Part shown: piece by piece, positions 40,865 to 58,784 of the stretch | Numbering within the stretch: the first letter of the stretch is position 1 | How the letters are laid out: every line of letters begins with the position of its first letter | Assembly (NCBI GenBank): GCA_963456685.1 | Contig: CAUOPB010000001.1 | Coordinates: forward strand, 57,511 to 121,510 | DNA length: 64,000 nt | DNA from: an uncultured Candidatus Saccharibacteria bacterium | Lineage (GTDB): Bacteria > Patescibacteriota > Saccharimonadia > Saccharimonadales > Saccharimonadaceae | Direction of reading: 5' to 3' | Program-made: the position numbers and the translations under genes | Notes under the pieces: generated by a model | Seen by the model: the letters and a program-made list of their open reading frames with translations, nothing else | Databases searched by the model: none | What the model was told of the DNA's origin: nothing

Positions 40865-41592
40865 TCCTCGACATACCTTTCCATTATTTTTTGGGCGGCC
40901 CTAAATTCTTCGTCAGTGAAAGTGTGGTAATTGGCAAACTTCGGGCTAATGGTAGTACCGGTGCGAAAATGCTGCAAGGCAAATCGCTTAGCTCCTTTGA
41001 CTAGCTCGCCAATCTTTTCAAAATCCGCTACCTCCAACTGCTCGCGGACGATGGTCGTTCGAAATTCATGGCTGATCCCTGAATCAATCATCAGTCGCAC
41101 GTTGTCTTTGATCGCCGTTAGATCAATCGGCCGCGCCGCAATCTCTACGTATTTTTCCAGCGGCCCCTTGACATCCATGGCGATGAAGTCAATCGTCCCC
41201 TCCTCGACCATGCCGCGCACTATATCCGGATGCGTGCCGTTAGTATCCAGCTTGACGTCAAAACCCAGCTGCTTAATCATCCGGCACAGCACCGGCAAAT
41301 CCTCGTTAACCGTCGGCTCGCCGCCAGAAATCACCACACCGTCTAGCCGACCAATGCGCGATTTCAGGAATATCATCGCTTCCTCAACTGGGATACTTGG
41401 CGCCAAACGCTCGGGCAGCACCAGCTCAGGATTATGGCAATAGCCGCAGCGCATATTACAGCCCGAGAGAAACAGCGCTGCCGCCACGTGCCCTGGATAG
41501 TCAACCAGCGACAGCTTCTGAATCCCACCGATCGACACCTTAAGCTGGGACAGCGACGGCGTTGGCTCGCTGATGTTCGGCGGCATCGTCAT
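40849..41592 (-). CDS. nrdG: Anaerobic ribonucleotide reductase activating radical SAM enzyme
   Basis: SLVDYPG, GCNMRCGYCHN, SGGEPT, LDTNG; follows nrdD. Confidence 0.92.
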   Translation of the reverse strand: MTMPPNISEPTPSLSQLKVSIGGIQKLSLVDYPGHVAAALFLSGCNMRCGYCHNPELVLPERLAPSIPVEEAMIFLKSRIGRLDGVVISGGEPTVNEDLPVLCRMIKQLGFDVKLDTNGTHPDIVRGMVEEGTIDFIAMDVKGPLEKYVEIAARPIDLTAIKDNVRLMIDSGISHEFRTTIVREQLEVADFEKIGELVKGAKRFALQHFRTGTTISPKFANYHTFTDEEFRAAQKIMERYVEECVIH

Positions 41593-44951: not shown

Positions 44952-46538
44952 TTATTTCTTGCCAAAACTCTTTCGTTTTGCCATGAATAGCAGGATTGCT
45001 GCCGAAGCCACACCAACGATAGTTCCAGCCAGATTAACTGCTACATTTTCGCCGCCCGTATTTGGAGCCTTCGGACCCGTCGAATCATTCTGCGCCGTTA
45101 GTACAACATCGTTGCCATCGCCGCCGACATAGCTAATCTTGAAGGTTGCGCCATCCACAGCGAACTCTGCACCCTCGGGCAAACCATTGAATGTCCCTTG
45201 AACCGGAGCGCTACCGTTATTGTTGATAATCGTAAAGGTATCACCCTTCTTGATGGTACCGCCAGGCAGATATACCAGCTCTAATTTTGAAGAATTACCA
45301 CCGTTGCTAAGCTGGACGCTCTGCGCAACAATCTGATCATAATGATCTTTGTCTAGAATTTCTGCCTTGTATACGCCAGTACCCTGCATAGAAAAGCTAT
45401 TCAGTACAGTAATCTTACCTGGCGAATTGCCTGGAGCAACGACACCTGCCACACTAAGATCTTTTACCGTAGCATTACCACCAAACACGCCGCCTTCATC
45501 GACATAAACGTCAGAACGACTGCCGTTTAGCAAGACTGTCTCACCCTTTCTAACACTTACCGACTCATTAGGTTTATCACCGTCCAATTTTATCAGCTTA
45601 GCTTCGTGGGCATTACCGTGCTGGCCATTCGGCGTACCGCTAGTGTTGTCCGAAGACTCAACCAGCAGAGTTCCCTCGTTATCCTTGTGAGCGACTAATT
45701 TGCCAGGTCCGCTAAGTTTGCCGGTAATCTTTACTGTCATATTCGAAAGTAGTTTATATTCAACATTGCCATTGAGCACAATATCGCCAGATAGAACTGT
45801 TGTTACGTTCGAAGAACCGCCGCCAGAGCCCATACAAGTTATCCCATCAGAAATCATCGCGCCGTTTTCGAAGGTAATTTTACTGGAACTTGTTTCGTTA
45901 TCAACGAAGCTAATATCTATTTGACCGCCACTCTTGACTGTGATATTATTAGCGCCTTCTAGCGGTACGCTAGCGTTTTCGCCAACAATTTTCTCTGAAG
46001 CTTTTATATAGCCACTTATATTGTTACACCCACTATTAGCAACCTCAAAACGGTTAATCGTCGGCCTGCTAGTGAACTTGCCGTCAAATCCGTTAGATTT
46101 CAGGTTTGATAAGCCAGTTATAGCACCTGAAACGTAAATACGAGGAATTTTATCTTCATCTTTATCGCCAGCGCTAGTGTGTCCGCCGCTAAACTCAGCA
46201 TCCGATGTAAATTTCAGCGTATCAATCGTATAGCTAGCACATGTCGGACTAGCGGTAACGTTGTTCATTTTTTGAGCATCCAAGCCCGACAAAGCAACAT
46301 TCAAATCATTCTGAATCGTCTCGCTAGCTCCGTTGGCACATGTAAATACCAGCTTAGCGCCCTCTGTTGGTACTTGGCCGTCTTTCCAGTTGCCAGCAGT
46401 TGACATTTTGTGGTCGCCAGCAGCGCCCGTCCACGTGAATGCAGTCGGCGCAGCATTGGCTGGCGCGTTAAATACCACTGCGCCAACAACAGCTGCCACT
46501 GACACAGCACTAGCCAATTTGACATAGGGAACACCCAT
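44952..46538 (-). CDS. Secreted beta-rich surface protein/adhesin with LPXTG-like sorting signal
   Basis: Signal peptide (PANA-A); WTGA...WKDG; VAPGNSPG; GTFNGLPEGA..ISYVGGDGNDVVLT; APNTG + TM + basic tail. Confidence 0.85.
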   Translation of the reverse strand: MGVPYVKLASAVSVAAVVGAVVFNAPANAAPTAFTWTGAAGDHKMSTAGNWKDGQVPTEGAKLVFTCANGASETIQNDLNVALSGLDAQKMNNVTASPTCASYTIDTLKFTSDAEFSGGHTSAGDKDEDKIPRIYVSGAITGLSNLKSNGFDGKFTSRPTINRFEVANSGCNNISGYIKASEKIVGENASVPLEGANNITVKSGGQIDISFVDNETSSSKITFENGAMISDGITCMGSGGGSSNVTTVLSGDIVLNGNVEYKLLSNMTVKITGKLSGPGKLVAHKDNEGTLLVESSDNTSGTPNGQHGNAHEAKLIKLDGDKPNESVSVRKGETVLLNGSRSDVYVDEGGVFGGNATVKDLSVAGVVAPGNSPGKITVLNSFSMQGTGVYKAEILDKDHYDQIVAQSVQLSNGGNSSKLELVYLPGGTIKKGDTFTIINNNGSAPVQGTFNGLPEGAEFAVDGATFKISYVGGDGNDVVLTAQNDSTGPKAPNTGGENVAVNLAGTIVGVASAAILLFMAKRKSFGKK

Positions 46539-46698: not shown

Positions 46699-46752
46699 TA
46701 AAAAGGCCTTGACTTAACCTGTCGAGGCCGTTTGCCCGGTATACCAGGCAAT
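46699..46752 (-). terminator. Hairpin plus intrinsic terminator, probably the original tRNA-Asn terminator displaced by integration
   Basis: Minus strand: TTGCCTGG-TATA-CCGGGCAA, then GGCCTCGAC-AGGTTAA-GTCAAGGCC-TTTTT. Confidence 0.65.
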
Positions 46753-46886
46753 TTATCTATCAATTTGGCTCGCACTAGCAAACACGTTGCGAACTGAAAG
46801 CTTAGAATATGATGACCATAGAATAGGTATGATAAAGGAAGTTTTACGTAGCCTGTAATATGCTTTATGGTTTCAAAATACGTAGC

Positions 46887-47117
46887 TATGCTGATGGTAC
46901 GTTCTGGGTGGTCTTTGAAGTAAATACTTCCCTCACCCAGTTGCTTTACCATTTCAGCTTTGAGCATAAGCTCCCAAGCATTACACACAAAGAAAGCAAA
47001 GCCCTCTACTCGATACTTCAGAGTTGGCTTATTGAACACTTCCAGTCCCATAATAAAGACTTCACGGCTTTTTTGGACTAACTGTTCAACCAATTTGTCT
47101 TTTGACTTTTTACTCAC
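46887..47117 (-). pseudogene. Truncated DUF3644-like gene (N-terminal ~77 aa)
   Basis: FNKPTLKYRVEGFAFFVCNAWELMLKA; the rest of the ORF runs across the element boundary and looks non-homologous. Confidence 0.6.
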
Positions 47118-47502
47118 ATAGTTATTTTATCACTTTGCTATGAGGTACGGTAGCAAGCCCCCTATGCCTAAGGCTTTTTTGTCAGGAAAGTCCGTAAACG
47201 CACATACTACCTAAATTTTTATAGCTAACAAAGTCAGTACGCTTTCCGCTTTGCCCAACAGTACTACACAACAAACAGTGGTTAGATTGTTGGGAATAAG
47301 TTGTTCGCTAGAGGGGGTAGTCGCCCTTTACTTTGGCGTTTAGACACTCCGCCTATGAAATGGTAAATTTCGGGGCTACTTTTGACCAAGCGTTTTTTGA
47401 ACAGGGTCTTCCGACCGTTCGCCCTTTGCTAGACGCTCCTGTGCCATATATAATGACAGCTTCGCCAGCTCGTGTAACTGCTCAACAAGTTCAGCCACGC
47501 CT

Positions 47503-50340
47503 TCATCGGTCCAAAAGTTTTGCCTGAAAGTCTAAGGCAAAATCTTCTTCGCCTCGCTTGTCGCTATTGTAGAACTTGAACCCTAACGGCTTCACCTCTT
47601 TGTAGCCGTGCTTGCTTACTTCTTCCAGATACTCACGGTAGTTACGACTATCACCGTCTTCAGCTTCAAACACCACTTCACTATCATCAGTTAGGCTTAT
47701 CAAGGCTTCTTCTTTCCATAAATCCTGCTCAAGAATATGACCGCCCTTAGGCTCAATCAAACACTGGTAGTACATCTCGCCACTGTGTACATCGTTCACA
47801 ATCAGCATATAGTCAGGGCTGAACCTGCGACCGTCTTGAGGGCTAAACAGCCAATAGTCTAGTTCGTTTCGTATGAGGTATATTTCAGCGCCCCTATACT
47901 TTGCTCGCAAGTCGCCAATTTGACTAGCAACATACTTCACGAACTTCTTTTCCTCGCTCGTGCCATAGTTTTCACTGTAAGCGTACCAGTCAGCCGTTTC
48001 TATATCGTACTGAAGGTCGGGGTTGTCGTGGTTGCTTTGGGCTTTGGCACGTTCATCGGTACTCACAAACACCTTCTTACCTGTAGCAGGGTCTTCGGTC
48101 GGGAACGACATAAGGTAGATATTCTTTTCTTTGCCAAATACCGACGACAGCGATACTGGTCGGAACTTCTTGCTACCTGTTACTCGTGGCATATTCACGT
48201 CAATCGCTTTGCGCACCTCTGGTAAAATCACACCGACAAGTAGCTGCAACTTCTCGGTAGCGTTCAACTGACTGATACCTTTGCCCTCTTCATAGGTGTA
48301 TTTTATTTCGTAAAGCGGCAAGTATTTTTCAATCAACTCATCAACCGTCTTGATACCAACAACGTGTTCACAGAGGTTGTTATAGCGGAAAAAGCCAGCT
48401 TCAGCCGCCACCAACGCCTTGCGAATAATAGGCAACGGGAAAAACTCTTCTGTAATACGAATAACGTCAACCTTTTGACCTGCAACAATCTGGTTTTGCT
48501 CAAAATCCGACAAGCCCCTTGCTCGCAGGTTATACGAACCAGCTTTTATAATACGCTTGAACGTCGTGTCAATTTCATCACCCTTTGTTTTGGTACGCTT
48601 GACAGTCTGATTGACCAGCACGAAGCCCTTTTGATACGTTTCGCTTTCAAGGAACTTTTGTTTCATTGTGATGGTCTTCTTTTCGACACCCTCACTGATA
48701 ATACCCTCGCCCAGCAAATCACGCTGAAGGCTCTCAAGAAACGTACCAGTTTTGACGAAGTGATACACAAACGTTTCTAGCACACGTCCTTTATCATAGG
48801 GGTCGTTGTCGAACTTTCGCTTGTACTTATCAAACTCAAGGTTGCGAGTAGCAAACAGGCTAAGCATATTGTCTTCTTCGCTATCTCGCTTATACGAGCG
48901 TGGTAGTTCATACGGGTTATATCTTGCACCACGACCAATCAGCTGAATATCTTGCAGCGACACCTTTTTACTCTCGGAAATATCAAAGTGAATAATATCA
49001 TATAACCCCAGCACGTCCCAGCCTTCGTTTAGGGCATTGACCGAAAAGATGGCTCGTATTGTGTTTCGTGGGCTGTCCAGCAACGGCAATAAGTCCGCTT
49101 TTTCCTTCTTCTGGCTGTTGTATATCAGCGTATTATCGTGGGCAAAACTAGACCGTATTTCAGCCGTAAACGCCTTCAAGCCGTCCCAATCACCACCTGA
49201 AATAAACCCTGCTTCTTTGGACGCCAGCCAATTGAACATATCAGCCAATATCTCGTGTTCACGATTCTTATTCTCACGCCCTAGTTCCCTCAAGCGGTTC
49301 AAGTCTTCGGGTCGCAAAGAGCCAATCACATTATCAAAAAACTTGCGGTCTTCTTCGCTTTGGGCAATTTTCATGGACTTGATAAGCACTATCGGACTGA
49401 TGGTTATACCCATTACACGTTCAGCCAGCAACCTGCGGTATTCACTCAACGCAACGGCATTTATAATCAAAAGACGCTTCTGGTCTTCGGTATGAACCTC
49501 TTGGTTGAATAGGAACTTTACGTCCTTGCTGTACCCGTCTTTGTTGAACGCCAAAAAGTCGTAGCGATGAACAATCTTATCTTGATACTTTTCGTGTATT
49601 GCCTGATTAGCAAGGTCAACCGTAGCAGTAAACTCTAATAGCATATTACCTTCACGGGCTTTCATTGCCGATAGTACCGCCGTTTCCCAGTTCTTTACCT
49701 CTACGGCTTCGGTCTTGGTCTTCTTACGAGTTTCTACGTTTAGTGAGTGGGCTTCGTCAGCAAGTATGACTACGTCATTGTCTACAAAGTCATCAAAAAT
49801 AATCCCGTTTTCCTTATCTTCGTTCAGCCTGTTATAGAGCAACTGTGTACTGAAGAACATAAAGTTGATGGCGTTACGACTACTATCAGCAACGCTACCA
49901 ACCGCCCTTATTTCAACATTTTGACCGTTGATTTTGATACCTTTAGGGTTGAACAGATACTTTTCAAACTTATAGTCAGTGAAGTTGCGGACAGCTTGCT
50001 TGATTATGTTATCCCTATACACCAAGAACAGGAAGTTGCGGTAGCCCTTCTCGTACAGATACAGCACAACAGACGCCATTACCAACGTCTTACCCGTTCC
50101 AGTCGCCATATTGAACAGTAAGTGCTTAGCACTTGCCCTATCGTGGTCGTAGAGCCATATAAAGTGCTTCAAGGCGTTCTCTTGATACTCTCGCAGTGTC
50201 TTGGTTGGGTGTAGGTTATCAGTGATGTAGTCGGGTATCTGGTAATATTTTGCCCACTGCTGGTAGTCAGGGTCGCTTTCTATTTTATTGAAAAGAAAGC
50301 TATCTAGTGTTTCACTGACCTTAGTTTTCGTTCGTGCCAT
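47503..50340 (-). CDS. res: Type III restriction subunit Res (second system)
   Basis: LREYQ, FNMATGTGKT, ADEAH, EFTAT, LNEGWDV, QLIGRGAR, FSPDY...IEPKG. Confidence 0.9.
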   Translation of the reverse strand: MARTKTKVSETLDSFLFNKIESDPDYQQWAKYYQIPDYITDNLHPTKTLREYQENALKHFIWLYDHDRASAKHLLFNMATGTGKTLVMASVVLYLYEKGYRNFLFLVYRDNIIKQAVRNFTDYKFEKYLFNPKGIKINGQNVEIRAVGSVADSSRNAINFMFFSTQLLYNRLNEDKENGIIFDDFVDNDVVILADEAHSLNVETRKKTKTEAVEVKNWETAVLSAMKAREGNMLLEFTATVDLANQAIHEKYQDKIVHRYDFLAFNKDGYSKDVKFLFNQEVHTEDQKRLLIINAVALSEYRRLLAERVMGITISPIVLIKSMKIAQSEEDRKFFDNVIGSLRPEDLNRLRELGRENKNREHEILADMFNWLASKEAGFISGGDWDGLKAFTAEIRSSFAHDNTLIYNSQKKEKADLLPLLDSPRNTIRAIFSVNALNEGWDVLGLYDIIHFDISESKKVSLQDIQLIGRGARYNPYELPRSYKRDSEEDNMLSLFATRNLEFDKYKRKFDNDPYDKGRVLETFVYHFVKTGTFLESLQRDLLGEGIISEGVEKKTITMKQKFLESETYQKGFVLVNQTVKRTKTKGDEIDTTFKRIIKAGSYNLRARGLSDFEQNQIVAGQKVDVIRITEEFFPLPIIRKALVAAEAGFFRYNNLCEHVVGIKTVDELIEKYLPLYEIKYTYEEGKGISQLNATEKLQLLVGVILPEVRKAIDVNMPRVTGSKKFRPVSLSSVFGKEKNIYLMSFPTEDPATGKKVFVSTDERAKAQSNHDNPDLQYDIETADWYAYSENYGTSEEKKFVKYVASQIGDLRAKYRGAEIYLIRNELDYWLFSPQDGRRFSPDYMLIVNDVHSGEMYYQCLIEPKGGHILEQDLWKEEALISLTDDSEVVFEAEDGDSRNYREYLEEVSKHGYKEVKPLGFKFYNSDKRGEEDFALDFQAKLLDR

Positions 50341-52060
50341 AGAATTTATCCGTCAAAGCTTTTTCGTCCGCTGTAACCTTGTGCCGTGTATCGTCCATAT
50401 CGGCATAGTTGAGGTATAGCTGATTCTCGTCTAGCACATCAGCCAGTGCTTCCTTGCGACCATCAAGGTCAAGTTGCCTGAAGTCTTCGTCTTTTTCAAA
50501 GTGGCTACGGTCAAACCAGAACTTCAAGAAGGCGTTGTTACGCATTTCAACGTAAATATCTTCAAGTTCCTTCAGGCTCGTGGCTTCCATAATACGGTCG
50601 ATATACTCTTGGTTGTACTTTTTCAGCTCGAAGTAAACGAACGAACCACCACCTTGCCAGCCAACAGCCTTGCTTACTCCTGTCTGGTCACCATTAACAA
50701 CATTTACTAAGCGTTTCTTTGTCAAATCTTCAATATAATCCATCTGTTCAATGCCAATCCATCTGCGACCCATTTTATGGGCAACAGCCGATGTTGTACC
50801 TGAGCCTAAACAAAAATCTAACACAATATCGTTTTCGCTTGTTGTCATTTCTAACATTCTCTTTATTTGAGCTTCTGGCTTTTTCCCACGAAGTAATGTA
50901 ACGCCGCCTTCTTTGGCAATTCCCTGATAATTCATATCAGTCCACAAGTTTGTAACAAGCTCAGCCGTGGTAAGTTCCCCGTCAATTTCACGCAGTTTAT
51001 CTTTATAGAATAGTATCCTGTTGCCCTTCCAGAAATACATATCAGAATAACCCTCTCGGTTGATACGATAAACTTTACTTCCATCTGCCTTAGAAACGTC
51101 AATTGCATTCTGGACATCTTTGCCAACATTCTTATAGTCAGGCTGAGCAAACCTTATAATTTGTTTTGCGTATTTTTCAATACTTTTCTCTTTATCAAAC
51201 CCATATTTACCTTCGGCAATCTTGAGAGGTATGAACTGCCACTGTTGAAAATCATCATCGATATTTTCTATGAACTGCGAATATGCCTTGTCATAACCTC
51301 TTTTTTGGTAGACGGGCTTATAATCCCACTTAGACTTGTCTTTAGCATATGCAATAACGTAGTCACAAACTTGAACGGGCGTAGGATTTATAGCTTTGTG
51401 ACCAGTAGCAGACCCTCTTTTTACAACCGCCTGAATTATGAAGTTACTAGAACCATAAACCTCATCACATAACACTTTTAGGTAGTGTACCTCATTATCA
51501 TCAATACTAATCCATATACTTCCGTCATCAGACAAAAGCTCTTTCGCAACCTCTAGCCTGTTCTTCATAAACGTTAGCCAGCCAGAATGATTGAAGCTAT
51601 CGTTGTAACGGAAGCCATCGTTCCCTGTATTGTAAGGTGGGTCAATGTAGATGAGTTTCACTTTACCAGTCAAACGACTTTTGAGGGTATAAAGAGCCAG
51701 CAGGTTATTACCCTTGATAAGTAGGTTCTGCTTCAGCTCGCCATCTTCATCAAAGAAGGAAATATCACTACTCGCAGTCAGCGACCTTTCACCATCCTTA
51801 TCAACGTAACGAAAATCGGTCAGTACTTTTGGTTCTTCCAGTGTGTCTATATCTTTACTGTCTATATCAATCTGAAGGAAGCGTTCTTCACGCCCCTTAT
51901 CTTCTTTGCTCATACCCGCTTCTAGGACTGTATCTTTGAACGGAAAATTCAGCACTACTTCGGTATCGTTTTTGATGAAACTACCCTTGCTATTGCTAAA
52001 CAAGCCAATCTTGTTGCTGTACTTGGTATATCGTCCTTTTTTCAGTGAATTATCTGCCAT
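50321..52060 (-). CDS. mod: Type III N6-adenine methyltransferase Mod (second system)
   Basis: IKGNNLLAL, IYIDPPYNTG, GKKPE, VLDFCLGSGTT, WIGIEQMDY. Confidence 0.92.
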   Translation of the reverse strand: MADNSLKKGRYTKYSNKIGLFSNSKGSFIKNDTEVVLNFPFKDTVLEAGMSKEDKGREERFLQIDIDSKDIDTLEEPKVLTDFRYVDKDGERSLTASSDISFFDEDGELKQNLLIKGNNLLALYTLKSRLTGKVKLIYIDPPYNTGNDGFRYNDSFNHSGWLTFMKNRLEVAKELLSDDGSIWISIDDNEVHYLKVLCDEVYGSSNFIIQAVVKRGSATGHKAINPTPVQVCDYVIAYAKDKSKWDYKPVYQKRGYDKAYSQFIENIDDDFQQWQFIPLKIAEGKYGFDKEKSIEKYAKQIIRFAQPDYKNVGKDVQNAIDVSKADGSKVYRINREGYSDMYFWKGNRILFYKDKLREIDGELTTAELVTNLWTDMNYQGIAKEGGVTLLRGKKPEAQIKRMLEMTTSENDIVLDFCLGSGTTSAVAHKMGRRWIGIEQMDYIEDLTKKRLVNVVNGDQTGVSKAVGWQGGGSFVYFELKKYNQEYIDRIMEATSLKELEDIYVEMRNNAFLKFWFDRSHFEKDEDFRQLDLDGRKEALADVLDENQLYLNYADMDDTRHKVTADEKALTDKFYGTNEN

Positions 52061-52091
52061 CGCTCATTACGTCCTTCCAAATTTTTACTGT

Positions 52092-52277
52092 TTACTGACC
52101 TGCTTCCAAAAACTTCTTTATATCTTCTTTTTTGTATCGCCGTATTTTACGCTCTCCAATACGAATAGGTTTGAGCGTACCATTTTTGTCCCAGTTACGC
52201 AGAGTGTTCGGGTGTACCTTGAGTAGTTCACTGACCTGCTTCAGTGTTAGGTATTCAGATAGATTTTCGTCTGCCAT
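52092..52277 (-). CDS. Excisionase/MerR-like HTH DNA-binding protein
   Basis: YLTLKQVSELLKVHPNTLRNWD, RRYKKEDI. Confidence 0.88.
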   Translation of the reverse strand: MADENLSEYLTLKQVSELLKVHPNTLRNWDKNGTLKPIRIGERKIRRYKKEDIKKFLEAGQ

Positions 52278-52334
52278 ATAATATTATTGTATAATAAATG
52301 ACAAGAACTTGGTAGTTGAAAGATGTAATGAATA

Positions 52335-53402
52335 ATGACTGACGATAATAGAGTACACATTTTTATGAACACATTCAGGCTTGATGAAGACCAAGCCAAG
52401 TATGTTCTTGAGCAAACGTACAAAATTATAAAGTCCTTAAACGAACCTCCTACCGAAGATAAAGAGCCAAGCCGTGAAGTGATTATGAAGCTTCTGAAAG
52501 ACCACTACAAGCTCAACGATATTCAATCCACCAACGTGCTTGAATATGCTTACGGGTTATCTGAAGCCCGTAGCAAGTCTAACGATTTTGCCATTGCCCA
52601 CTACTTGAATAACCTCGCCATCGGTCTATTTGAAATGGTCGTTGACCATAACAATCTACCAGACACCAACGCCGTCAATCGTAGCTATATCCTCATAAGC
52701 AATGAACTAAGAAGGATATATGCTCGCAACCCCGAACTTCAAGCCATCAAGGAAAGTATATGCTGGCAAGTGTTTGACCGCCTTGAGCACATTGAATACG
52801 CTTTTTGGGACTGGAAGCAGTACAACGAAAACGAATACGGTATAAGCCATAACGCCGAAGTAAACACCCTCTGTATTATCAGCGGCAAAGAAACACCTGA
52901 ATTTAGCCCTGAATTGAAAAAAATTGTTACCGAAGCCGAAGCCAACGGCAAAGCCTTTTATACTGAACTTGAGGAAGAAGACCCTGAATATGATGGCAAG
53001 ATAATACCCGAATACACACTTACCTATGATAACAACGGTATTATTTTGGTAAATGGGGTCTTGAAACTGAAAAAGACCCAAGCGGGTCAAGCGTCAGATA
53101 TGGTATTGAGCCAGTCGTTTCAACACGATGGGCAAACAGAGCCGTTCAAGCCAAGCCTTGCTACTAAACGCCAGCTTACTACTATCATTGGTGATATGGG
53201 CTTTGACCCAACCTTACGGGCTATTTTCTTCCCAACTATCAGCAAAGACAGAGGTATTATATTCCGCTCGCACCTTACCCGTGCTGAAGCGGACGCTCAG
53301 CATATAGATACTAGTAAGCTAGACAAAAAGCTGAAGAAACTTGGGGCTGTAACCGAACAAGAACCAGACCGCCCAATAGACTTGAGTGAAATACCGTTCT
53401 AA
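52335..53402 (+). CDS. Hypothetical protein of the element
   Basis: 355 aa ORF, divergent from the HTH gene. Confidence 0.75.
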   Translation: MTDDNRVHIFMNTFRLDEDQAKYVLEQTYKIIKSLNEPPTEDKEPSREVIMKLLKDHYKLNDIQSTNVLEYAYGLSEARSKSNDFAIAHYLNNLAIGLFEMVVDHNNLPDTNAVNRSYILISNELRRIYARNPELQAIKESICWQVFDRLEHIEYAFWDWKQYNENEYGISHNAEVNTLCIISGKETPEFSPELKKIVTEAEANGKAFYTELEEEDPEYDGKIIPEYTLTYDNNGIILVNGVLKLKKTQAGQASDMVLSQSFQHDGQTEPFKPSLATKRQLTTIIGDMGFDPTLRAIFFPTISKDRGIIFRSHLTRAEADAQHIDTSKLDKKLKKLGAVTEQEPDRPIDLSEIPF

Positions 53403-53567
53403 CCTGAACACATTCTGAACGGAAAATAACGGAAATAAACGGCTTTTCAACGTACTTGAACGGAAAGTTTAGTTTTTATGACAGCAAAAATAGCCCTTTG
53501 AACGAACTTATTACGCAATAAAACTAAAACAGCGACAACCCCGTTAGATATTGGCATAGTTGGTAGT

Positions 53568-53744
53568 ATGAACGACCAACAAGAGCCAGTTCCATCAAGC
53601 CCAGACACGCCAGCCGTGCCAGTGCTTGATACTGACGAGTTGAATAACCTCGCCAAGTTTTTGGACGCCCTTTTGGAAGTTGATATGGAAGTAAAACGTA
53701 ATGAAGGGGTCAGTACAAATGATAACTACCTACAAGCTATTTAG
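53568..53744 (+). CDS. Small hypothetical protein (58 aa)
   Basis: MNDQQEPVPSS...ELNNLAKFLDALLEVD; first of a chain of overlapping ORFs leading to the spoVG-like and rep genes. Confidence 0.5.
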   Translation: MNDQQEPVPSSPDTPAVPVLDTDELNNLAKFLDALLEVDMEVKRNEGVSTNDNYLQAI

Positions 53745-53844
53745 GATATTTGTCCGCAAACTAATAGAACTGCTCACCAACGTATGGCTATGGGCAATCA
53801 AAAAAGAACAAGCCGCTGAGGAACGTAAGCGATATGGTCGTTAG
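53719..53844 (+). CDS. Small hypothetical protein (41 aa)
   Basis: MITTYKLFRIFVRKLIELLTNVWLWAIKKEQAAEERKRYGR; overlaps both neighbours. Confidence 0.35.
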   Translation: MITTYKLFRIFVRKLIELLTNVWLWAIKKEQAAEERKRYGR

Positions 53845-54133
53845 CGAAGTAAACATCACGCCTGTAAAGCCGAAGAATGGCTTAGTTGGTATAGCCAGCC
53901 TAGTTGTTGATAGAAACATATACCTTAACTCAATCGCCGTTTACACCAAGCTAGACGGCTCGTATCGCCTGTTGTACCCTACGAAGCTCGTAGGCAATAG
54001 GTCACTAGGACTATTCTATCCAATCAACCGTGAAGCAAGCAGGGCTATTGAAGAAGCCGTGTTCAAAAAATGTAGCGAAGTATTTGAAGGACGTAACGAT
54101 GATAGATACTATCAAGCTGGTACTGCCTTTTAG
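53834..54133 (+). CDS. SpoVG-family nucleic-acid binding protein
   Basis: VSEVNITP, LVGIASLVVD, LNSIAV, YPINREASRAIEEAV. Confidence 0.75.
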   Translation: MVVSEVNITPVKPKNGLVGIASLVVDRNIYLNSIAVYTKLDGSYRLLYPTKLVGNRSLGLFYPINREASRAIEEAVFKKCSEVFEGRNDDRYYQAGTAF

Positions 54134-55211
54134 TAAGCGTCCCCACTGGTATGAAAAAGCTCGCCTCCAACACGGCTTTGATGTCGATACGGGCTTATTC
54201 AAGGCTGTTGCTAATCCTAGTAGTGAAAACAAGAAAAAAGGTATCTATCAACCTCGCCTCACCTACACCGAACGACCAGTTAGAGGCGGTAAAAACTACG
54301 AATTAGCAATTGAGTTGTCGCTACCAAAACTGATGTTCAATAATAACTTCAGCGAACTTGATGACGCCGATTTTGAAGCAGTAGTCAAAAAGTTATCTGA
54401 CACGATAAGAACCACTTACGGTATCTGGTTATTTCCTCATCAAATACGGCAAGCCAGTGTCCGTAAAATAGACTACTCGAAAAACATTATATTCACTGAC
54501 CGTACGCCAGTTTCTAACGTACTTGCCAACGTCCGAACGGCTGACGTTTCCAAAGTGTACGATATTCAAAATACCGACTTTCGTAATGGCGGACACGTCT
54601 ACCATATACACAGCAACAGCCTAGATATTGCCATTTACGATAAAGTTGCCGACCTAAAACAAGAGCGTACATCGCCCAAGCGTAGCCGTGAAAAAGACGG
54701 CTACGTACAAATGAGCCTACTTGATGAACTAGAACGCCAAAAGACCGTAACAGTTACTCGCTTAGAAGTACGTCTGAACGGGCTACGAAAAATACGCAAT
54801 GAACTGGCTAAGGTTGGCGTTACGCACGGTATCTCCTTTGAAGAAATGTATAGCAGCGACACTTCGCAAAAAATACTAATGCGACACTGGCAAAATATCT
54901 TTGACCGCATACCTAAAGGGCTATTAGACAGCGACACCGCTGAACATCTGCTTATCAATATCAAGAAAGCCAACGAAGATATGAAGATGACGGAAGCCCT
55001 CGCACGAGTTGGCTATGCCTACCTTCGGCAAGACAAAGATGAACGCTATGTACGCAACCTGCTCGAAGGCTTATTCAACCCATCGCAATACCGCCGTTTC
55101 AAGCAAAAAAGCCGAGAGCCACCGAACCCTACACAACTCAAGACACTCCTACATATAACCAATACCTTGACGGCTATGACGCCCGTTAATATTGAAGACT
55201 ATACTTTCTAG
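54099..55211 (+). CDS. Putative replication initiator (phage/plasmid gene II/X, Rep_trans-like)
   Basis: Start MIDTIKL; ELSLPKLMFNNN, VRKIDYSKN, AIYDKV, TRLEVRL pattern typical of rolling-circle initiators. Confidence 0.65.
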   Translation: MIDTIKLVLPFSKRPHWYEKARLQHGFDVDTGLFKAVANPSSENKKKGIYQPRLTYTERPVRGGKNYELAIELSLPKLMFNNNFSELDDADFEAVVKKLSDTIRTTYGIWLFPHQIRQASVRKIDYSKNIIFTDRTPVSNVLANVRTADVSKVYDIQNTDFRNGGHVYHIHSNSLDIAIYDKVADLKQERTSPKRSREKDGYVQMSLLDELERQKTVTVTRLEVRLNGLRKIRNELAKVGVTHGISFEEMYSSDTSQKILMRHWQNIFDRIPKGLLDSDTAEHLLINIKKANEDMKMTEALARVGYAYLRQDKDERYVRNLLEGLFNPSQYRRFKQKSREPPNPTQLKTLLHITNTLTAMTPVNIEDYTF

Positions 55212-55267
55212 TTTTGGTAAGTATTGTTATATAATGTTATCAAATATATAATATAGTCAGGAAGATT

Positions 55268-56818
55268 ATGAAAGCAAGAAAAGAAGTAAAAGACTACGAA
55301 GGTATGAAAGCCTTCCTAATCGCACGAGTATCCGACCCGCGGCAAGTGGATGCCCTGCCAGCACAGGAGCTACGTCTCAACGAATACGCTGACCGCTATA
55401 AGTTCAGCAAAGAATTCCATCGTTTTGACGAAACGGCTTTCAAAGAAGACCGTGCTAAGTTTATTGAAATTGTTGATGAAGCTATCAAGTACCCTAAATA
55501 TTTCGTGATGGTATTTGATAAAATTGACCGCCTAACTCGTGATGTTTCTTCAGACGTTGTACGCACGTTGAAGGACCTAGTAAAAGAAGGGCGTTGCGAA
55601 CTACACTTCCCGTCTGACGGACTTATATACCACCAGCACTCACCAGCTCACGACAAGACCCGTCTAGATATGGGTATGGTCTTTGGTGGTTACTACTCAA
55701 TGGCTATCAGCGACAACGTAAAACGTAAGATTGAACAGAAGCTTCACGATGGCGAATACCCAGGCAAGGCTTGTGTTGGCTATAAGAACATCAAATGGGA
55801 AGACACCAGCGGTAAAGTGGTAAAGAATATCACACCCGACCCAGACCGCAAGCAGTACATTATCAAGGCGTTTGAATTGCGGCTTGAAGGTAAGTCTTAT
55901 CGCACCATTGCCAAGATACTTCGTGAAGATGGCTTCCGCAGTAACACCAAAAAGCAAGGTATAGTTGGTCAGAGTCAGATTGAAACAATGCTCAAGAACC
56001 CGTTCTATTACGGCGTTATGAAGTACGATGGCGGTCTTTACCCTCATAAGTACGAACCGATAATAGACAAGTCCACCTTCGACAAGGTTCAACGTATCAA
56101 CAACCAGCGGACTAACGAAAAGACCAAAACTAACACCAAGCAGATATTTACCTTCAGTGGTATACTCAAATGTGCCACCTGCGGTTGTACTATCTCATCG
56201 TACGAGCAAAAAGGACACGTCTATATGCGTTGTACCAAGGCAAAGGTTGGCGTAGCTTGCGACCAGCCTCATATCGCTGAAGCGGATATACTACCGCAAG
56301 TAACTGAACTGCTTGAAAAGCTCAATATCAGTGAAGGAATAGTGAACCAAGTGCTTGAGCTGATGAAAAACGAACACGATAATATACAGCTGTTCTATAA
56401 AAACGCTATTACACAAACACGGGCTGAATACCTACGTTTAGAGAAAAAGCTAGGTATACTGTACGATGACAGACTTGATGGACGTATTACTGTCGATGAA
56501 TATGACAAATATGTAATGAAGTATAAGACCGAAATGGAAGACCTTGACCGTAAGTTAGTTGAGTACACAAATAACGATACGTCCTTCCAACTCACCTCTG
56601 CTTATCTGTTAGAACTGGCGTCAAAAGCTAAAAATATCTTTGAGCGTTCGCAACCAGAGCAAAAGAACAAAATTCTGCGTATGCTACTTGCGAACCCTAC
56701 TTTGAAAGCAAAAAAGCTTCAACTACCTCTGTTGAAGCCTTTCGCTAGTGTACTAGACAACTCTAATTCTCAAAATTGGCTCCGGCAGCTGGGCTCGAAC
56801 CAGCGACCTAATGGTTAA
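55268..56818 (+). CDS. Large serine recombinase (integrase)
   Basis: ARVS catalytic serine, DKIDRLTR, NPFYYG, HKYEPII, zinc ribbon CATCG...MRC...C, coiled coil. Confidence 0.93.
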   Translation: MKARKEVKDYEGMKAFLIARVSDPRQVDALPAQELRLNEYADRYKFSKEFHRFDETAFKEDRAKFIEIVDEAIKYPKYFVMVFDKIDRLTRDVSSDVVRTLKDLVKEGRCELHFPSDGLIYHQHSPAHDKTRLDMGMVFGGYYSMAISDNVKRKIEQKLHDGEYPGKACVGYKNIKWEDTSGKVVKNITPDPDRKQYIIKAFELRLEGKSYRTIAKILREDGFRSNTKKQGIVGQSQIETMLKNPFYYGVMKYDGGLYPHKYEPIIDKSTFDKVQRINNQRTNEKTKTNTKQIFTFSGILKCATCGCTISSYEQKGHVYMRCTKAKVGVACDQPHIAEADILPQVTELLEKLNISEGIVNQVLELMKNEHDNIQLFYKNAITQTRAEYLRLEKKLGILYDDRLDGRITVDEYDKYVMKYKTEMEDLDRKLVEYTNNDTSFQLTSAYLLELASKAKNIFERSQPEQKNKILRMLLANPTLKAKKLQLPLLKPFASVLDNSNSQNWLRQLGSNQRPNG

Positions 56819-56851
56819 CAGCCATCCGCTCTACCACTGAGCTATGCCGGA
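56777..56851 (-). tRNA. tRNA-Asn (GTT) with encoded CCA
   Basis: TCCGGCATAGCTCAGTGGTAGAGCGGATGGCTGTTAACCATTAGGTCGCTGGTTCGAGCCCAGCTGCCGGAGCCA folds as a cloverleaf. Confidence 0.97.
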
Positions 56852-56912: not shown

Positions 56913-58784
56913 CTACTGCGCCTGCAGCGCATCAAGTTGTTTTGCCAAATCAGCAATCGCTTCCCAACTAGCGCCATCGGTCATAATTGACAGTACGTAC
57001 GTACCGTGCGAACCATAAACAATCGCCGAGTCATGCAATAATCCATTCATAAAGCCAACCTTATCGGCAACCGTCCCCAATACACCTGCTGGAATACCTT
57101 TACGAAACACGTTTTTCTTCATAGCTTCTAGCAAGCGCTGCTGATTGGCGCTCGAAAAGTTTTGGCCGGTTGCAATCATACCTAGCAGCAGGGCTTGATC
57201 ATTTGCTGTCGTATACGGTCCGCCACCCTTCATAAATGTCGAGTTCTTAAGGCCAATGGCGTTAGCTTCGCTAGTCAAAGTACTAACTCCAATTGCGCTC
57301 AAGAAACTTTCCGCGCAAGCATTGTCACTCAAACTAATCATTTTATCAAAGCATACTTGATCGCTATCCCAACTGCGCGCACCGCTATCAATACGCTTCA
57401 GCAAGCTATAAGCCACTAGCAATTTGTAGGTGCTAGCTGTTACAAATTGCTTATCGCCATTGTATTCGGCGCGGCGCTTTTTGCCGTCAAGTTCTATCAT
57501 CGACACGCCGTAAGTCCCCGGATGGTCTTTGGCGAAATTCTCCATCAAAGCCGACAAGCCAGCATCGCTCGAGCTATATGTCCGCGTATATTCTTCGCGC
57601 GGCGGCACAGCCTTGGTAACGGCATCAAGCTGCAAGCTGCCGCCGTCGATTGTACTTTGTAATTTCTGCAGCATTACCGCAACATCAAGTGCTTGCCCTG
57701 AACTACCTGTCTGCTTGCTAACAATAGTGAAGTCATGCGTAGTAATTTTCGACACCCCAGGCGCCACAGTAACAATTTTCGCTACCGTATCATTCAGCCA
57801 TTTGCCAGTACGTTCAGCATTCAGCGTAGCCACCAATTCTTTATCTTTAGCGATAAAATCAAGCCAAGCGTAAACTGTCTGCGCATCAACTGCGACGGTT
57901 TTATCTCTAGCTTTAATTTGAATACCTCCCGCTAGATGTTTGGTTAGCTTTCGCGCCAATTGCTTAGCTTTTTCATCGCTCACCGCTGGTTTGATATCTA
58001 TTTTATTGACATTAATAGTTGTCGGCTGATGTAATTTTGGTTTGATATCGCGAACAGATTGCTTGATTTTAGCCTCATCGCATTTACCGCCAAGCCTAGA
58101 CCTCTGCAGCTCGAGCTGCGCCCCTTTGGCTTTAAGCGTAGCATTGGTCGGACTAACTTGGCAGCGAGCAACTATTTTGTCGTTAACAGCTGCATCCGTT
58201 TGGTTGGCAAATTTAGGGGTTGGCGGCGAACCATAATTCAAACCATACCAAAACAATGAAGTTGGCACCAACCGCACATACCAAGGATAATCATACTGCT
58301 TGATCCGCTGCGAATTATCAACCGAGACAGCAATATCGCGCAGCTTTATACTAACTGCTGGCTTGTCTGAATTATTCATCGTAATATTAAGAGTATGGTC
58401 ACTATACGCTTGATTAGCTTTTTTAGCCGCCGCATCTTTAGTCATACCGCCAATTGCTAATCCGTCAACGTGCGCAAACGGCAAGGTCTTATCGCTTGGA
58501 TAAGCCAACTGTATAATTACCAGAAGAAAAGTCAAACTTGCTGCCGCACCGACTGCATATTTACGGACATGCTTATGACGTAACAAACGTTGTAATTTTA
58601 TCTGCAATGAAGCAGCTTGGTAATTGACCTGCCGATATGCGCCATAAACTACGTGCCGTAATTGCAATCGCCAAGCGCTAGATTTAGTAGATTTAGCGGC
58701 ATGGACCGCCGCTTTAGTACCAGTATAACGCCGGCGGTAAGATGGTTTACGCGCTATCCGTCTCACGCGGCCCCTCATAACCAA
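56913..58784 (-). CDS. Membrane-anchored serine hydrolase (class A beta-lactamase-like) with peptidoglycan-binding region
   Basis: ASTYK (SxxK), SDN, DKVG motifs; N-terminal TM. Confidence 0.85.
   Translation of the reverse strand: MVMRGRVRRIARKPSYRRRYTGTKAAVHAAKSTKSSAWRLQLRHVVYGAYRQVNYQAASLQIKLQRLLRHKHVRKYAVGAAASLTFLLVIIQLAYPSDKTLPFAHVDGLAIGGMTKDAAAKKANQAYSDHTLNITMNNSDKPAVSIKLRDIAVSVDNSQRIKQYDYPWYVRLVPTSLFWYGLNYGSPPTPKFANQTDAAVNDKIVARCQVSPTNATLKAKGAQLELQRSRLGGKCDEAKIKQSVRDIKPKLHQPTTINVNKIDIKPAVSDEKAKQLARKLTKHLAGGIQIKARDKTVAVDAQTVYAWLDFIAKDKELVATLNAERTGKWLNDTVAKIVTVAPGVSKITTHDFTIVSKQTGSSGQALDVAVMLQKLQSTIDGGSLQLDAVTKAVPPREEYTRTYSSSDAGLSALMENFAKDHPGTYGVSMIELDGKKRRAEYNGDKQFVTASTYKLLVAYSLLKRIDSGARSWDSDQVCFDKMISLSDNACAESFLSAIGVSTLTSEANAIGLKNSTFMKGGGPYTTANDQALLLGMIATGQNFSSANQQRLLEAMKKNVFRKGIPAGVLGTVADKVGFMNGLLHDSAIVYGSHGTYVLSIMTDGASWEAIADLAKQLDALQAQ

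Follow-up and report, generated by a model that had tools for sequence, protein, structure and literature searches.

Genes and features of the locus

The window analysed here, a 64,000-nt stretch of a Saccharibacteria-type genome, contains a 10.0-kb element (46765-56782) that adjoins the CCA end of a tRNA-Asn gene. This tRNA-Asn(GTT) (56777-56851, minus strand) is intact and is the only tRNA-Asn found in the assembly. Copies of TTGGCTC, the 7-bp crossover core, lie on the plus strand at both ends of the element: at the left junction (46765-46771), on the border of host trailer and element, and at the right junction (56776-56782), on the border of integrase gene and tRNA, where TGG is both a Trp codon and the antisense of CCA. 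By itself this repeat was rejected as boundary evidence, as it occurs at chance level (8 plus-strand copies in the window). The element boundary is drawn instead from empty sites, which a search of 35 other genomes of the genus revealed in six (G003, G008, G010, G017, G029 and G034). The left flank is exact up to 46771 in those six, and the predicted empty site is 96.1-97.6% identical to theirs over 950-953 nt. The contig of G005 stops just short of the core, and the match in G019 is limited to tail DNA. The original prediction, that a serine integrase crosses over inside its own gene and that the TTGGCTC at the tRNA CCA end recurs at 46765, is thus borne out: both copies are present, and the empty tRNA-Asn sites of the same genus place the left junction within the 7-mer in all six genomes, not elsewhere.

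Next to the left junction lies a 5' remnant of a DUF3644 / PDC-S19 candidate defence gene (46890-47117, minus strand), recognized by family search and by comparison with a close relative, L013, which has a 342-codon open frame at this locus; the window is without some 0.76-0.88 kb of it. Family searches identify the next two genes, both on the minus strand, as cargo in the form of the restriction subunit (Res, 47503-50340) and methyltransferase (Mod, 50321-52060) of a Type III system, and the Mod of the window is only about 67% identical to that of elements otherwise 95-98% identical. A 61-aa HTH_17 / excisionase-family protein follows (52092-52277, minus strand; TIGR01764, 32.6 bits, cut-off 28.8). 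Its family is represented in 31 of 35 integrase loci tested, and from its sequence it is a candidate directionality factor or regulator. On the plus strand are a 355-aa protein with no family match (52335-53402), which is a module member in close relatives, two core-module genes for a SpoVG-like small protein (53834-54133, below the Pfam cut-off) and a replication-initiator-like protein (54030-55211; Phage_CRI, 21.6 bits against a cut-off of 21.7), and finally the integrase (55268-56818). The whole is best explained as a small integrative element built of an excisionase-like HTH protein, an unknown protein, SpoVG-like and Rep-like proteins, a large serine integrase and swappable defence cargo. 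In very small genomes, such elements seem to be among the chief vehicles of defence cargo, restriction-modification included. A viral collection held neither a relative of the integrase nor a match to the arm pattern described below, and therefore gives no sign of a phage. A search of sequencing runs listed 18 runs, none with half of the query words and no RNA run among them.

An integrase gene with two ends

The integrated form of the integrase is 516 aa long and scores above the cut-offs of the Resolvase, Recombinase and zinc-ribbon Pfam families (PF00239, 43.1 bits, cut-off 23.3; PF07508 and PF13408). Across 78 aligned integrase sequences, the catalytic residues S22, D87, R88 and R91 and the zinc-ribbon cysteines C302, C305, C322 and C331 are invariant. 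With Resolvase catalytic residues, a Recombinase domain and a four-Cys zinc ribbon, the protein is a large serine recombinase, and the genome has one recombinase of this kind. Identity with the SCC recombinases CcrA/CcrB was rejected, as the NCBIfam equivalog scores of P0017, a natural tailed homologue, are far too low (48.6 bits against 700 for CcrA, 45 against 900 for CcrB) and the element has a single gene rather than a pair. A PDB sequence search returned no match at E 0.001, a PDB profile search gave just a weak match to an IS607-type resolvase (E 0.0055), and residues 400-531 of P0017 met only unnamed clusters in the ESM Atlas.

The frame ends in ...SQNWLRQLGSNQRPNG, its final 11 residues coming from the antisense strand of tRNA-Asn(GTT), as first noticed. 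Its TAA stop (56816-56818) corresponds, on that strand, to base 37 plus the last two bases of the anticodon. Joining the two TTGGCTC copies yields an open frame of 533 aa whose last 30 codons occupy 46766-46855, with the stop at 46856-46858; the 30 open codons foreseen for the joined copies are therefore real. The segment 46766-46858 (plus strand) is accordingly both the element arm of attP and a detached 3' end of the integrase gene, as the joined frame and the tails of homologues indicate. The crossover core coincides with integrase codons 503-505, and the chromosomal form therefore ends in 11 tRNA-derived residues and the circle form in a conserved, predicted helical tail of 28 residues. 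A crossover within the coding sequence that yields two C-terminal isoforms is a feature shared with the self-modifying integrases of the Mx8, rumA ICE and DsiB type. The prediction that integrated and excised forms encode different tails is borne out both by the empty-site junctions and by homologues bearing the same tail class.

The tail as DNA arm and as protein

Two functions appear to be layered on the detached 3' end. Codons 1-10 of the element arm seem to double as a DNA recognition arm, and codons 17-30 are predicted to form an amphipathic helix. Among 98 arms collected with a DNA-only pattern on codons 1-10, 83 are open through codon 27, as compared to 28 in shuffles, and 70 keep the four hydrophobic helix positions (codons 20, 23, 26 and 27), as compared to 0.2 in shuffles; the helix pattern is absent in 28. 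This main count covers all 120 metagenome loci, and a smaller one on 78 of the 120 found 55 of 66 arms open. Because synonymous sites are near saturation, pN/pS was used in place of dN/dS. The unfiltered value is 0.68 in the tail frame versus 0.99 and 1.19 in the other two frames, and it is preferred to the 0.43 and 0.44 of 47- and 71-member sets of the main class, which had been prefiltered on openness and codon 12. Taken from the sequences, these figures argue that the 28-residue tail is under selection as protein, beyond its role as a DNA arm.

Alignment of the predicted tail with homologous recombinases recovers the same tail class in two settings, distally in elements that are integrated and as an in-frame extension of integrase bodies. 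A protein search with the tail region of P0017 retained 3 proteins out of 26 candidates. No distal tail of the same class was found at L019 (10 kb searched) or L059 (18 kb), nor did the Asn-based profile and pattern, a query not suited to those clades, detect distal tails in the tRNA-Gly, -Trp, -Arg and -Gln clades.

Attachment-site motif and probable tRNA terminators

The motif CGAAC lies in the element arm at 46790-46794 (plus strand), 25-29 positions from TGG (+25 to +29), and in the tRNA as the antisense T-loop at 56796-56800 (+20 to +24). All 17 distinct tRNA-Asn arms have CGAAC at +20 to +24, and CGAA stands at +25 to +28 in 35/35 element arms, these being the tails found by protein profile; tRNA-Gly arms are without CGAAC at +20. 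The element arm hence has the motif 5 bp farther from TGG than the T-loop does, and such an offset of the outer motif is the attP/attB signature of canonical large serine integrases (PMC11722253). Together with the short core, this is the site architecture of a serine integrase, seen here in right-hand arms only, and left arms have little DNA-level conservation. We infer that CGAAC at 46790-46794 is the attP motif of the zinc-ribbon domain.

Insertion also changes what follows the tRNA. The host 3' trailer of tRNA-Asn (46699-46751, minus strand; two hairpins and a U run, fold -24.7 kcal/mol) directly follows the tRNA in empty-site genomes and is displaced by 10 kb when the element inserts. An earlier proposal of a hairpin/terminator at 46699-46752 immediately behind the tRNA holds as to placement and fold, although a strict terminator scan skipped the segment because its last stem has a mismatch. 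In the integrated state, a probable intrinsic terminator on the tRNA strand (56710-56739, minus strand; 9-bp stem, 7-nt loop, U run) lies 37 nt past CCA, inside the integrase gene. Embedded terminators of this kind occur in 13 of 17 tRNA-Asn loci versus 2% of control windows, and a tRNA terminator is thus probably coded within the integrase gene, as judged from these comparisons.

Homologues, fusions and tandem arrays

An antisense-tRNA peptide terminates 96 among the best 120 homologues (619 were found). The Trp codon coincides with the CCA position in 34 of 35 tRNA-overlapping integrase loci, which involve tRNA-Asn, -Gly, -Trp, -Arg and -Gln; the 35th is masked. Natural integrase-tail fusions were seen in 5 of 120 proteins, 7 of 67 protein fragments and 6 of 123 DNA matches, the last set comprising 117 integrated and 6 fused junctions; P0017 and P0024 are examples of natural tailed homologues. 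In all eight fusions with an integrated body of 80% identity or more as nearest relative, the tail belonging to the same element as that body came first of 19. Most fusions carry the cognate tail, which was not top-ranked in 8 of 18.

One DNA fusion, L148, is a contig with a 150-bp terminal repeat, the same module and no tRNA, and it is probably circular. A collapsed tandem copy could also give rise to a terminal repeat. Some 80 codons ahead of the junction, the integrase frame of L148 is interrupted, and the circle as assembled therefore encodes no intact fused protein. The other five DNA fusions are fragments of 406-629 nt, on which a circle and a tandem array therefore look alike. In the tandem arrays L132, L064, L060, L023 and L065 the integrase reads into unrelated arms, and the body therefore tolerates several ends.

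Relation to known systems

In canonical large serine integrases, attP lies outside the integrase gene. The present element differs from them as well in showing clear DNA-level conservation on just one arm per site. As described for SPbeta SprA, Listeria LI/A118, phiC31 and Bxb1, such enzymes share with the integrase the succession of catalytic domain, recombinase domain and zinc ribbon with an inserted coiled coil, and also the very short core and the 5-bp difference in outer-motif position between attP and attB, but their direction is set by a separate recombination directionality factor (RDF) (PMC11722253).

The novelty implied at the outset for an att site within the gene and a C-terminal swap was overstated, as both have been published for streptococcal rumA ICEs (Ambroset et al. 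2016, PMC4701971) and Dehalococcoides DsiB (McMurdie et al. 2011, PMC3146451). An att site within a serine integrase gene is thus already known, and the motif offset and the probable embedded terminator are the new details. According to the account of DsiB, this large serine recombinase of about 540 aa likewise has a 3' end that invariably overlaps the att site in the terminal (3') part of a stable-RNA gene and continues into its antisense strand, and its islands also occur as tandem copies; its authors suggested that full function of the gene requires either the circular state or a neighbour that completes it (PMC3146451). In contrast to the element, with its tRNA CCA end, those ssrA islands target tmRNA, and the DsiB module includes a second small recombinase, DsiA, as well as ParB-like and Mom-like genes. 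DsiB C-termini are reported as divergent, and the portions of that account drawn on here contain neither a conserved attP-encoded tail nor a selection test (PMC3146451). The element falls outside the Dehalococcoides ssrA-GI class, defined by a tmRNA target and a six-gene module with DsiA: its target is tRNA-Asn, the host tmRNA is on another contig, and it has a single recombinase.

The rumA ICEs, as described, resemble the element in having att in the gene of a single serine integrase, whose 3' end is exchanged with a change in C-terminal length and sequence, and a functional difference between the C-termini was proposed. Unlike the element, they are conjugative and target a protein-coding gene whose end is also exchanged, and the description drawn on includes no tRNA, T-loop motif or embedded terminator (PMC4701971). 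The Myxococcus phage Mx8 (Magrini et al. 1999, as cited in PMC4701971) similarly carries attP within its integrase gene, and the integrated form is said to be less active. It differs in being a phage with a tyrosine recombinase and in the much longer swap, from a 112-aa C-terminus to 13 residues upon integration. Archaeal suicidal integrases (SSV1, pTN3, pT26-2) belong to the tyrosine family and have their gene split into two inactive pieces (PMC8371274). Membership in that group was rejected, as the element's enzyme is of the serine family and retains all canonical domains in one 516-aa frame.

A tail swap that may attenuate the integrase

The best explanation overall, which we regard as having about an even chance of being right, is that the element recombines at the CCA end of tRNA-Asn, where the enzyme would read the T-loop CGAAC as the attB motif and the CGAAC copy of the element arm, shifted outward by 5 bp, as the attP motif, with the integrase gene providing a replacement terminator for the tRNA. 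The tail would be part of a fully active, integration-competent enzyme, whose activity a single integration event would lower, as described for phage Mx8. Without the tail, the enzyme still has all its canonical domains and could excise the element slowly, with the 61-aa HTH protein probably acting as directionality factor; since an excisionase-family protein is encoded, a switch made by the tail alone is not required. In this way, the tail swap may serve the enzyme as a signal of its location, chromosomal or not.

The locus would offer a clean case of a recombinase reaction that rewrites the enzyme's own C-terminus, as proposed for two other groups of serine integrases. The isoforms differ by one predicted helix beside the RDF-binding domain, which bears on the control of direction or activity in cis. 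A serine integrase with the T-loop and CCA end as its target might also be developed for inserting DNA at neutral sites of Saccharibacteria and of further hosts for which genetic tools are scarce. A more sweeping and rather unlikely synthesis would see here a widespread Patescibacteria clade of large serine integrases whose attB is the universal tRNA T-loop plus CCA end, and whose attP arm encodes a C-terminal helix that acts as a built-in directionality element, docks at the RDF site and is lost when the enzyme recombines. Protein coding, recombination and tRNA termination would all share a stretch of about 170 bp, and arrays of single-gene cassettes behind tRNA-Asn, reminiscent of integrons, would be the work of this enzyme too.

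Alternative functions of the tail

The tail could instead be a degradation tag: an unstable circle form would limit re-integration and let the Rep-bearing circle persist or spread, and integration would remove the tag and stabilise the enzyme. Val or Ala is the final residue of 41 of 71 tails; in a 50-tail subset, the share is 60% as against 10.6% of long host-genome ORFs, and the three C-terminal residues are without exception apolar or small in 62% as against 8%. The Val/Ala bias persists at tail lengths 28, 30 and 31, but apolar ends may be a by-product of the helix, the window's own tail ends in Arg-Ser-Leu, and a tag needs no 28 residues with conserved acidic and helix-face positions. Mycobacteriophage repressors that shed a tag upon integration have been described as such a case (PMC3694055). 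The host encodes tmRNA, SmpB, ClpP and a Prc-family protease, and its tmRNA tag, read by eye, ends in ALAA (ARAGORN identified no tag). ClpXP was rejected as the tail protease, as no ClpX scored above cut-off in 40 of 40 same-genus genomes. An unstable enzyme on an incoming circle would, moreover, impede integration, and a degradation tag seems improbable to us.

It is distinctly unlikely, in our estimation, that the tail itself is the directionality switch, docking in cis at the RDF site (zinc-ribbon domain and coiled-coil hinge) to fix an integration conformation, such that loss of the tail would give an excision form without a separate RDF. An incoming circle has the tailed form only and a single integrated copy the tailless form only, which fits the logic of a switch. 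Switching in SPbeta is reported to require one short RDF helix that packs between DBD2 and the coiled-coil hinge (PMC11722253), and the tail is a predicted amphipathic helix at the end of the same domain. The frequency of the excisionase-family gene nevertheless argues against a tail-only switch, Xis-family RDFs of serine integrases being already described (PMC3694055), and constitutive excision would destabilise the element, yet integrated junctions far exceed fused ones.

Still more doubtful is the absence of any regulation, with a tail that merely adds fold stability or solubility, a swap that is tolerated and a layout that persists by being compact and by linking the integrase to its own site. 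In most database copies, a tRNA-derived end goes together with a full set of catalytic and zinc-binding residues, and the unrelated ends in tandem arrays fit as well. Against this, purifying selection acts on the tail, a segment that needs a circle or a tandem copy for its expression, which implies an effect on fitness in that state. Finally, we consider it very improbable that the tail frame is an independent small peptide from the left end of the element and no part of the integrase. The frame is open in many remnants without an integrase, but an in-frame ATG lies at most 15 codons upstream in just 11 of 107 junctions, the DNA upstream, which belongs to the host or to a neighbour, shows no conservation, the tail frame is always that of the integrase at TGG, and natural fusions occur.

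The integrase junction and its two isoforms

The integrase of the tRNA-Asn element is encoded at 55268-56818 (plus strand). In its integrated form it is a 516-aa large serine recombinase, with the Resolvase, Recombinase and zinc-ribbon families above their Pfam cut-offs, and its 3' end overlaps tRNA-Asn(GTT) (56777-56851, minus strand). The last 14 codons, stop included, lie on the antisense strand of the tRNA: its CCA, read in antisense, supplies the Trp codon TGG, and anticodon-loop bases read in the same way supply the stop. The core 7-mer TTGGCTC stands at both junctions (46765-46771 and 56776-56782, plus strand), and joining the two copies gives a 533-aa frame ending in a detached tail encoded at the element's left end (46766-46858, plus strand). 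Because TTGGCTC occurs eight times on the plus strand of the window, its repetition is no proof by itself. Left-junction DNA was compared with 60 genomes, 35 of them other members of the genus. In 6 of these 35 the left-flank match ends exactly at 46771, and the same six match the predicted empty site at 96.1-97.6% over ~950 nt, with the host trailer directly adjoining the tRNA. These empty sites fix the junction, and the insertion is thus 10,011 bp core to core. The original prediction had placed the crossover of a serine integrase inside its own gene, with an in-frame alternative tail and an empty site whose trailer hairpins directly follow the tRNA; all three hold, and the integrase has two C-terminal isoforms. 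The integrase/tRNA layout is real, precisely mapped and well supported as an architecture. The element has a G+C content of 42.9% against 47.4% for the genome, and the 820-kb assembly holds one recombinase of this kind and one tRNA-Asn. In another genome (G005:C9, locus L002), the contig stops just short of the core, a break that a population mixing occupied and empty sites would be expected to produce.

Judged by every sequence feature tested, the integrase is a large serine integrase; CcrA/B, DsiB and archaeal suicidal integrase identities were all rejected. Excerpts on streptococcal rumA ICEs (PMC4701971) and on DsiB at tmRNA (PMC3146451) describe serine integrases whose genes contain the attachment site and whose C-terminus is swapped; tyrosine integrases with internal sites are described in PMC8371274 and, for Mx8, via PMC4701971. 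Searches of the open-licence literature turned up no account of a Patescibacteria clade that targets the tRNA CCA and has a conserved tail encoded by the element site (attP).

Distribution of the layout

Across the order, 78 of 401 genomes have an integrase match at E 1e-40. The 55 loci examined comprise the window, 14 loci from the closest records and 40 long-contig regions from the top of the order-wide matches. The integrase end overlaps a tRNA in 35 of them. In 34 the CCA coincides with a Trp codon in frame (tRNA-Asn in 18, Gly in 10, Arg in 4, Trp and Gln in 1 each); the 35th is masked there. Of 619 protein homologues found, the best 120 include 96 that terminate in an antisense-tRNA peptide. 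By profile, the tail class lies at the far end of 9 of 18 tRNA-Asn loci, and a tenth has a divergent tail. As for the other eight, four have less than 7 kb of upstream DNA, two are of distant clades, and L019 and L059 gave no profile match to the window's tail class in 10 and 18 kb searched, respectively. The tail profile matches 57 of the 401 genomes (one is unpublished and supports no claim made here), many without an intact integrase. Of the integrase gene, degenerate 1.7-kb elements (loci L022, L145, L188 and L010) retain no more than the final 110 codons, together with the tail arm; the embedded terminator and att arm are still there.

The tail as a protein

The tail is under selection as a protein. 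The metagenome search pattern used only the DNA of codons 1-10, and codons 11-30 were then scored, which avoids circularity. At least 120 loci gave at least 123 matches; once two short matches, exact duplicates and sequences sharing 90% or more had been removed, 98 arms were left. Kin among these do not count as independent, but the arms form a dereplicated set from many habitats. No stop interrupts the frame through codon 27 in 83 of the 98; the other two forward frames give 20 and 9, and 1000 shuffles average 27.8 with a maximum of 40. V/I/L/M/F occupies codons 20, 23, 26 and 27 in 70 arms, against 0.2 (maximum 3) in shuffles; some of the 28 arms lacking this helix pattern belong to other tail classes, and some are short tails at cassette junctions free of an integrase. 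Unfiltered pN/pS over codons 11-27 is 0.68, against 0.99 and 1.19 in the other frames, with synonymous sites near saturation. Arg9 is CGA in 35 of 35 profile-found tails, so that the constraint on codons 1-10 is partly at the DNA level.

The tailed integrase also occurs in nature as in-frame fusions. As had been anticipated, homologous recombinases share the tail class, both at the far ends of integrated elements and fused to the integrase body: in P0017, P0021, P0022, P0024 and P0109 among the best 120 protein homologues, in 7 of 67 tail-profile matches among cluster representatives (the integrase body was recognised by profile in six and by eye in P0130), and in L148, L212, L229, L232, L238 and L245 among the metagenome matches listed. 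The tail of P0144 is almost identical to the window's. Eight fusions have a nearest integrated body with 80% identity or more over the last 40 residues, and in all eight the distal tail of the element concerned comes out top of 19, in P0181 only weakly (35%); overall, the cognate tail ranks first of 19 in 10 of 18. The metagenome contig L148 (7.6 kb) is probably a circle, since it has a 150-bp terminal repeat, no tRNA and the module of HTH, SpoVG-like, Rep-like and integrase genes; as assembled, its integrase frame is broken near residues 421-454. The picture is complicated by tandem arrays, where integrases run into unrelated arms as well.

Possible roles of the tail swap

Every function of the swap considered here is one that we infer. 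The favoured reading, by analogy and with about an even chance of being right, is attenuation: the tailed integrase of the circle would be the fully active enzyme, insertion would lower its activity by removing the tail, and the element's 61-aa HTH protein would serve as recombination directionality factor (RDF). Excerpts report that integration lowers the activity of the Mx8 integrase (via PMC4701971) and that Xis-family RDFs of serine integrases exist (PMC3694055). The second-favoured reading, rather unlikely, is a degradation tag: Val/Ala is far commoner at tail ends than at the ends of host proteins, and ClpP, tmRNA and SmpB are present in the window's genome, but ClpX scores above cut-off in 0 of 40 genus genomes and the window's own tail ends Arg-Ser-Leu.

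That the tail is a built-in directionality element at all seems improbable. As the sole switch, a directionality helix is more doubtful still, though it fits SPbeta, where an excerpt of PMC11722253 describes one short RDF helix at the DBD2/coiled-coil hinge as essential. A swap with no regulatory effect is less likely again, and an independent peptide in the tail frame is very improbable, a nearby in-frame ATG occurring in just 11 of 107 junctions. Separately, the host tmRNA tag, read by eye, ends ALAA.

A probable terminator within the integrase gene

The insertion displaces the host trailer hairpins by 10 kb. The integrase gene contains, on the tRNA strand (minus) and 37 nt past the CCA, a hairpin of 9 bp and a U run (56710-56739); from its sequence, this is a probable tRNA terminator. 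A terminator-like site occupies the same place in 13 of 17 distinct tRNA-Asn loci, compared with 2% of other integrase windows. Across 29 aligned sequences, from one of which the tested structure was drawn, 90% of cells pair and 4 of 9 pairs change on both sides; the paired fraction and covariation score were reached by 0 of 500 shuffles, and the two pair-count measures are unexceptional (124 and 191 of 500). The hairpin is broken in a more distant subclade. Such a terminator would shield the integrase gene from antisense read-through.

Element content and flanking genes

Left to right, the element carries the tail, the remnant of a DUF3644/PDC-S19 candidate defence gene cut by a deletion (46890-47117, minus strand), Type III Res and Mod, the 61-aa HTH protein (above the cut-off of excisionase-family model TIGR01764), a 355-aa protein of no known family, a SpoVG-like protein, a Rep-like protein and the integrase. 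Among the 35 integrase loci tested, 31 have the HTH gene and 28 the Rep-like gene; the cargo is variable. A search of viral contigs yielded no relative. We infer a small integrative element, probably mobilisable and replication-competent. At the remnant's position, the near-identical relative L013 has a 342-codon frame; the DUF3644/PDC-S19 gene is wholly absent from L012 and L159. L012 and L013 are otherwise near-identical to the window's element, yet diverge sharply at 50990-51520 (mid Mod gene) and at 52400-53480 (the 355-aa protein gene, 49% protein identity), which suggests swapped specificity regions.

Outside the element, 56913-58784 (minus strand) encodes a 623-aa membrane-anchored host protein with a beta-lactamase-like serine hydrolase domain, scoring far under all class A beta-lactamase cut-offs. 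To the left of the element are encoded a surface protein of 528 aa that has a sortase-type C-terminus and matches no Pfam family (44952-46538, minus strand) and an apparent anaerobic ribonucleotide reductase, so named from its sequence (41540-43675, minus strand).

Proposed site recognition and cassette-like arrays

Counted from TGG, 17 of 17 distinct tRNA-Asn arms have the antisense T-loop sequence CGAAC at +20..+24, and 35 of 35 element arms have CGAA at +25..+28. These may be read as the motifs of the tRNA site (attB) and attP, respectively; according to an excerpt of PMC11722253, what defines the geometry of large serine integrase sites is that their zinc-ribbon-domain motif lies shifted by 5 bp between attB and attP. 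This shift between T-loop and element arm would explain how one clade can move between tRNAs. tRNA-Gly targets have CTAAC or CAAAC in place of CGAAC. Left arms show scant DNA-level conservation past ~12 bp, so that recognition looks lopsided. A second conserved arm class, with TATAAC for CGAAC and its own open frame, follows some tandem-array integrases (loci L132, L064, L023 and L065; proteins P0033, P0040, P0063, P0065 and P0089).

Beyond the element's far end, L057 (8169-10441), L194, L176, L168, L116, L154 and L060 have rows of att-type junctions, the junctions being 0.3-1.5 kb from one another; in L057 there is one gene per unit (356, 76 and 178 aa) on the tRNA strand, resembling an integron cassette array. 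Many array arms keep the DNA motif, with short, unconserved tails. A few flank sequences from the 45 nt next to the core on its left recur across unrelated genomes (L057, L060, L116, L154, L168, L176, L190 and others); one contains an inverted repeat whose end is 5 nt short of the core. Non-autonomous cassettes may have these recurrent flanks as their left att arm.
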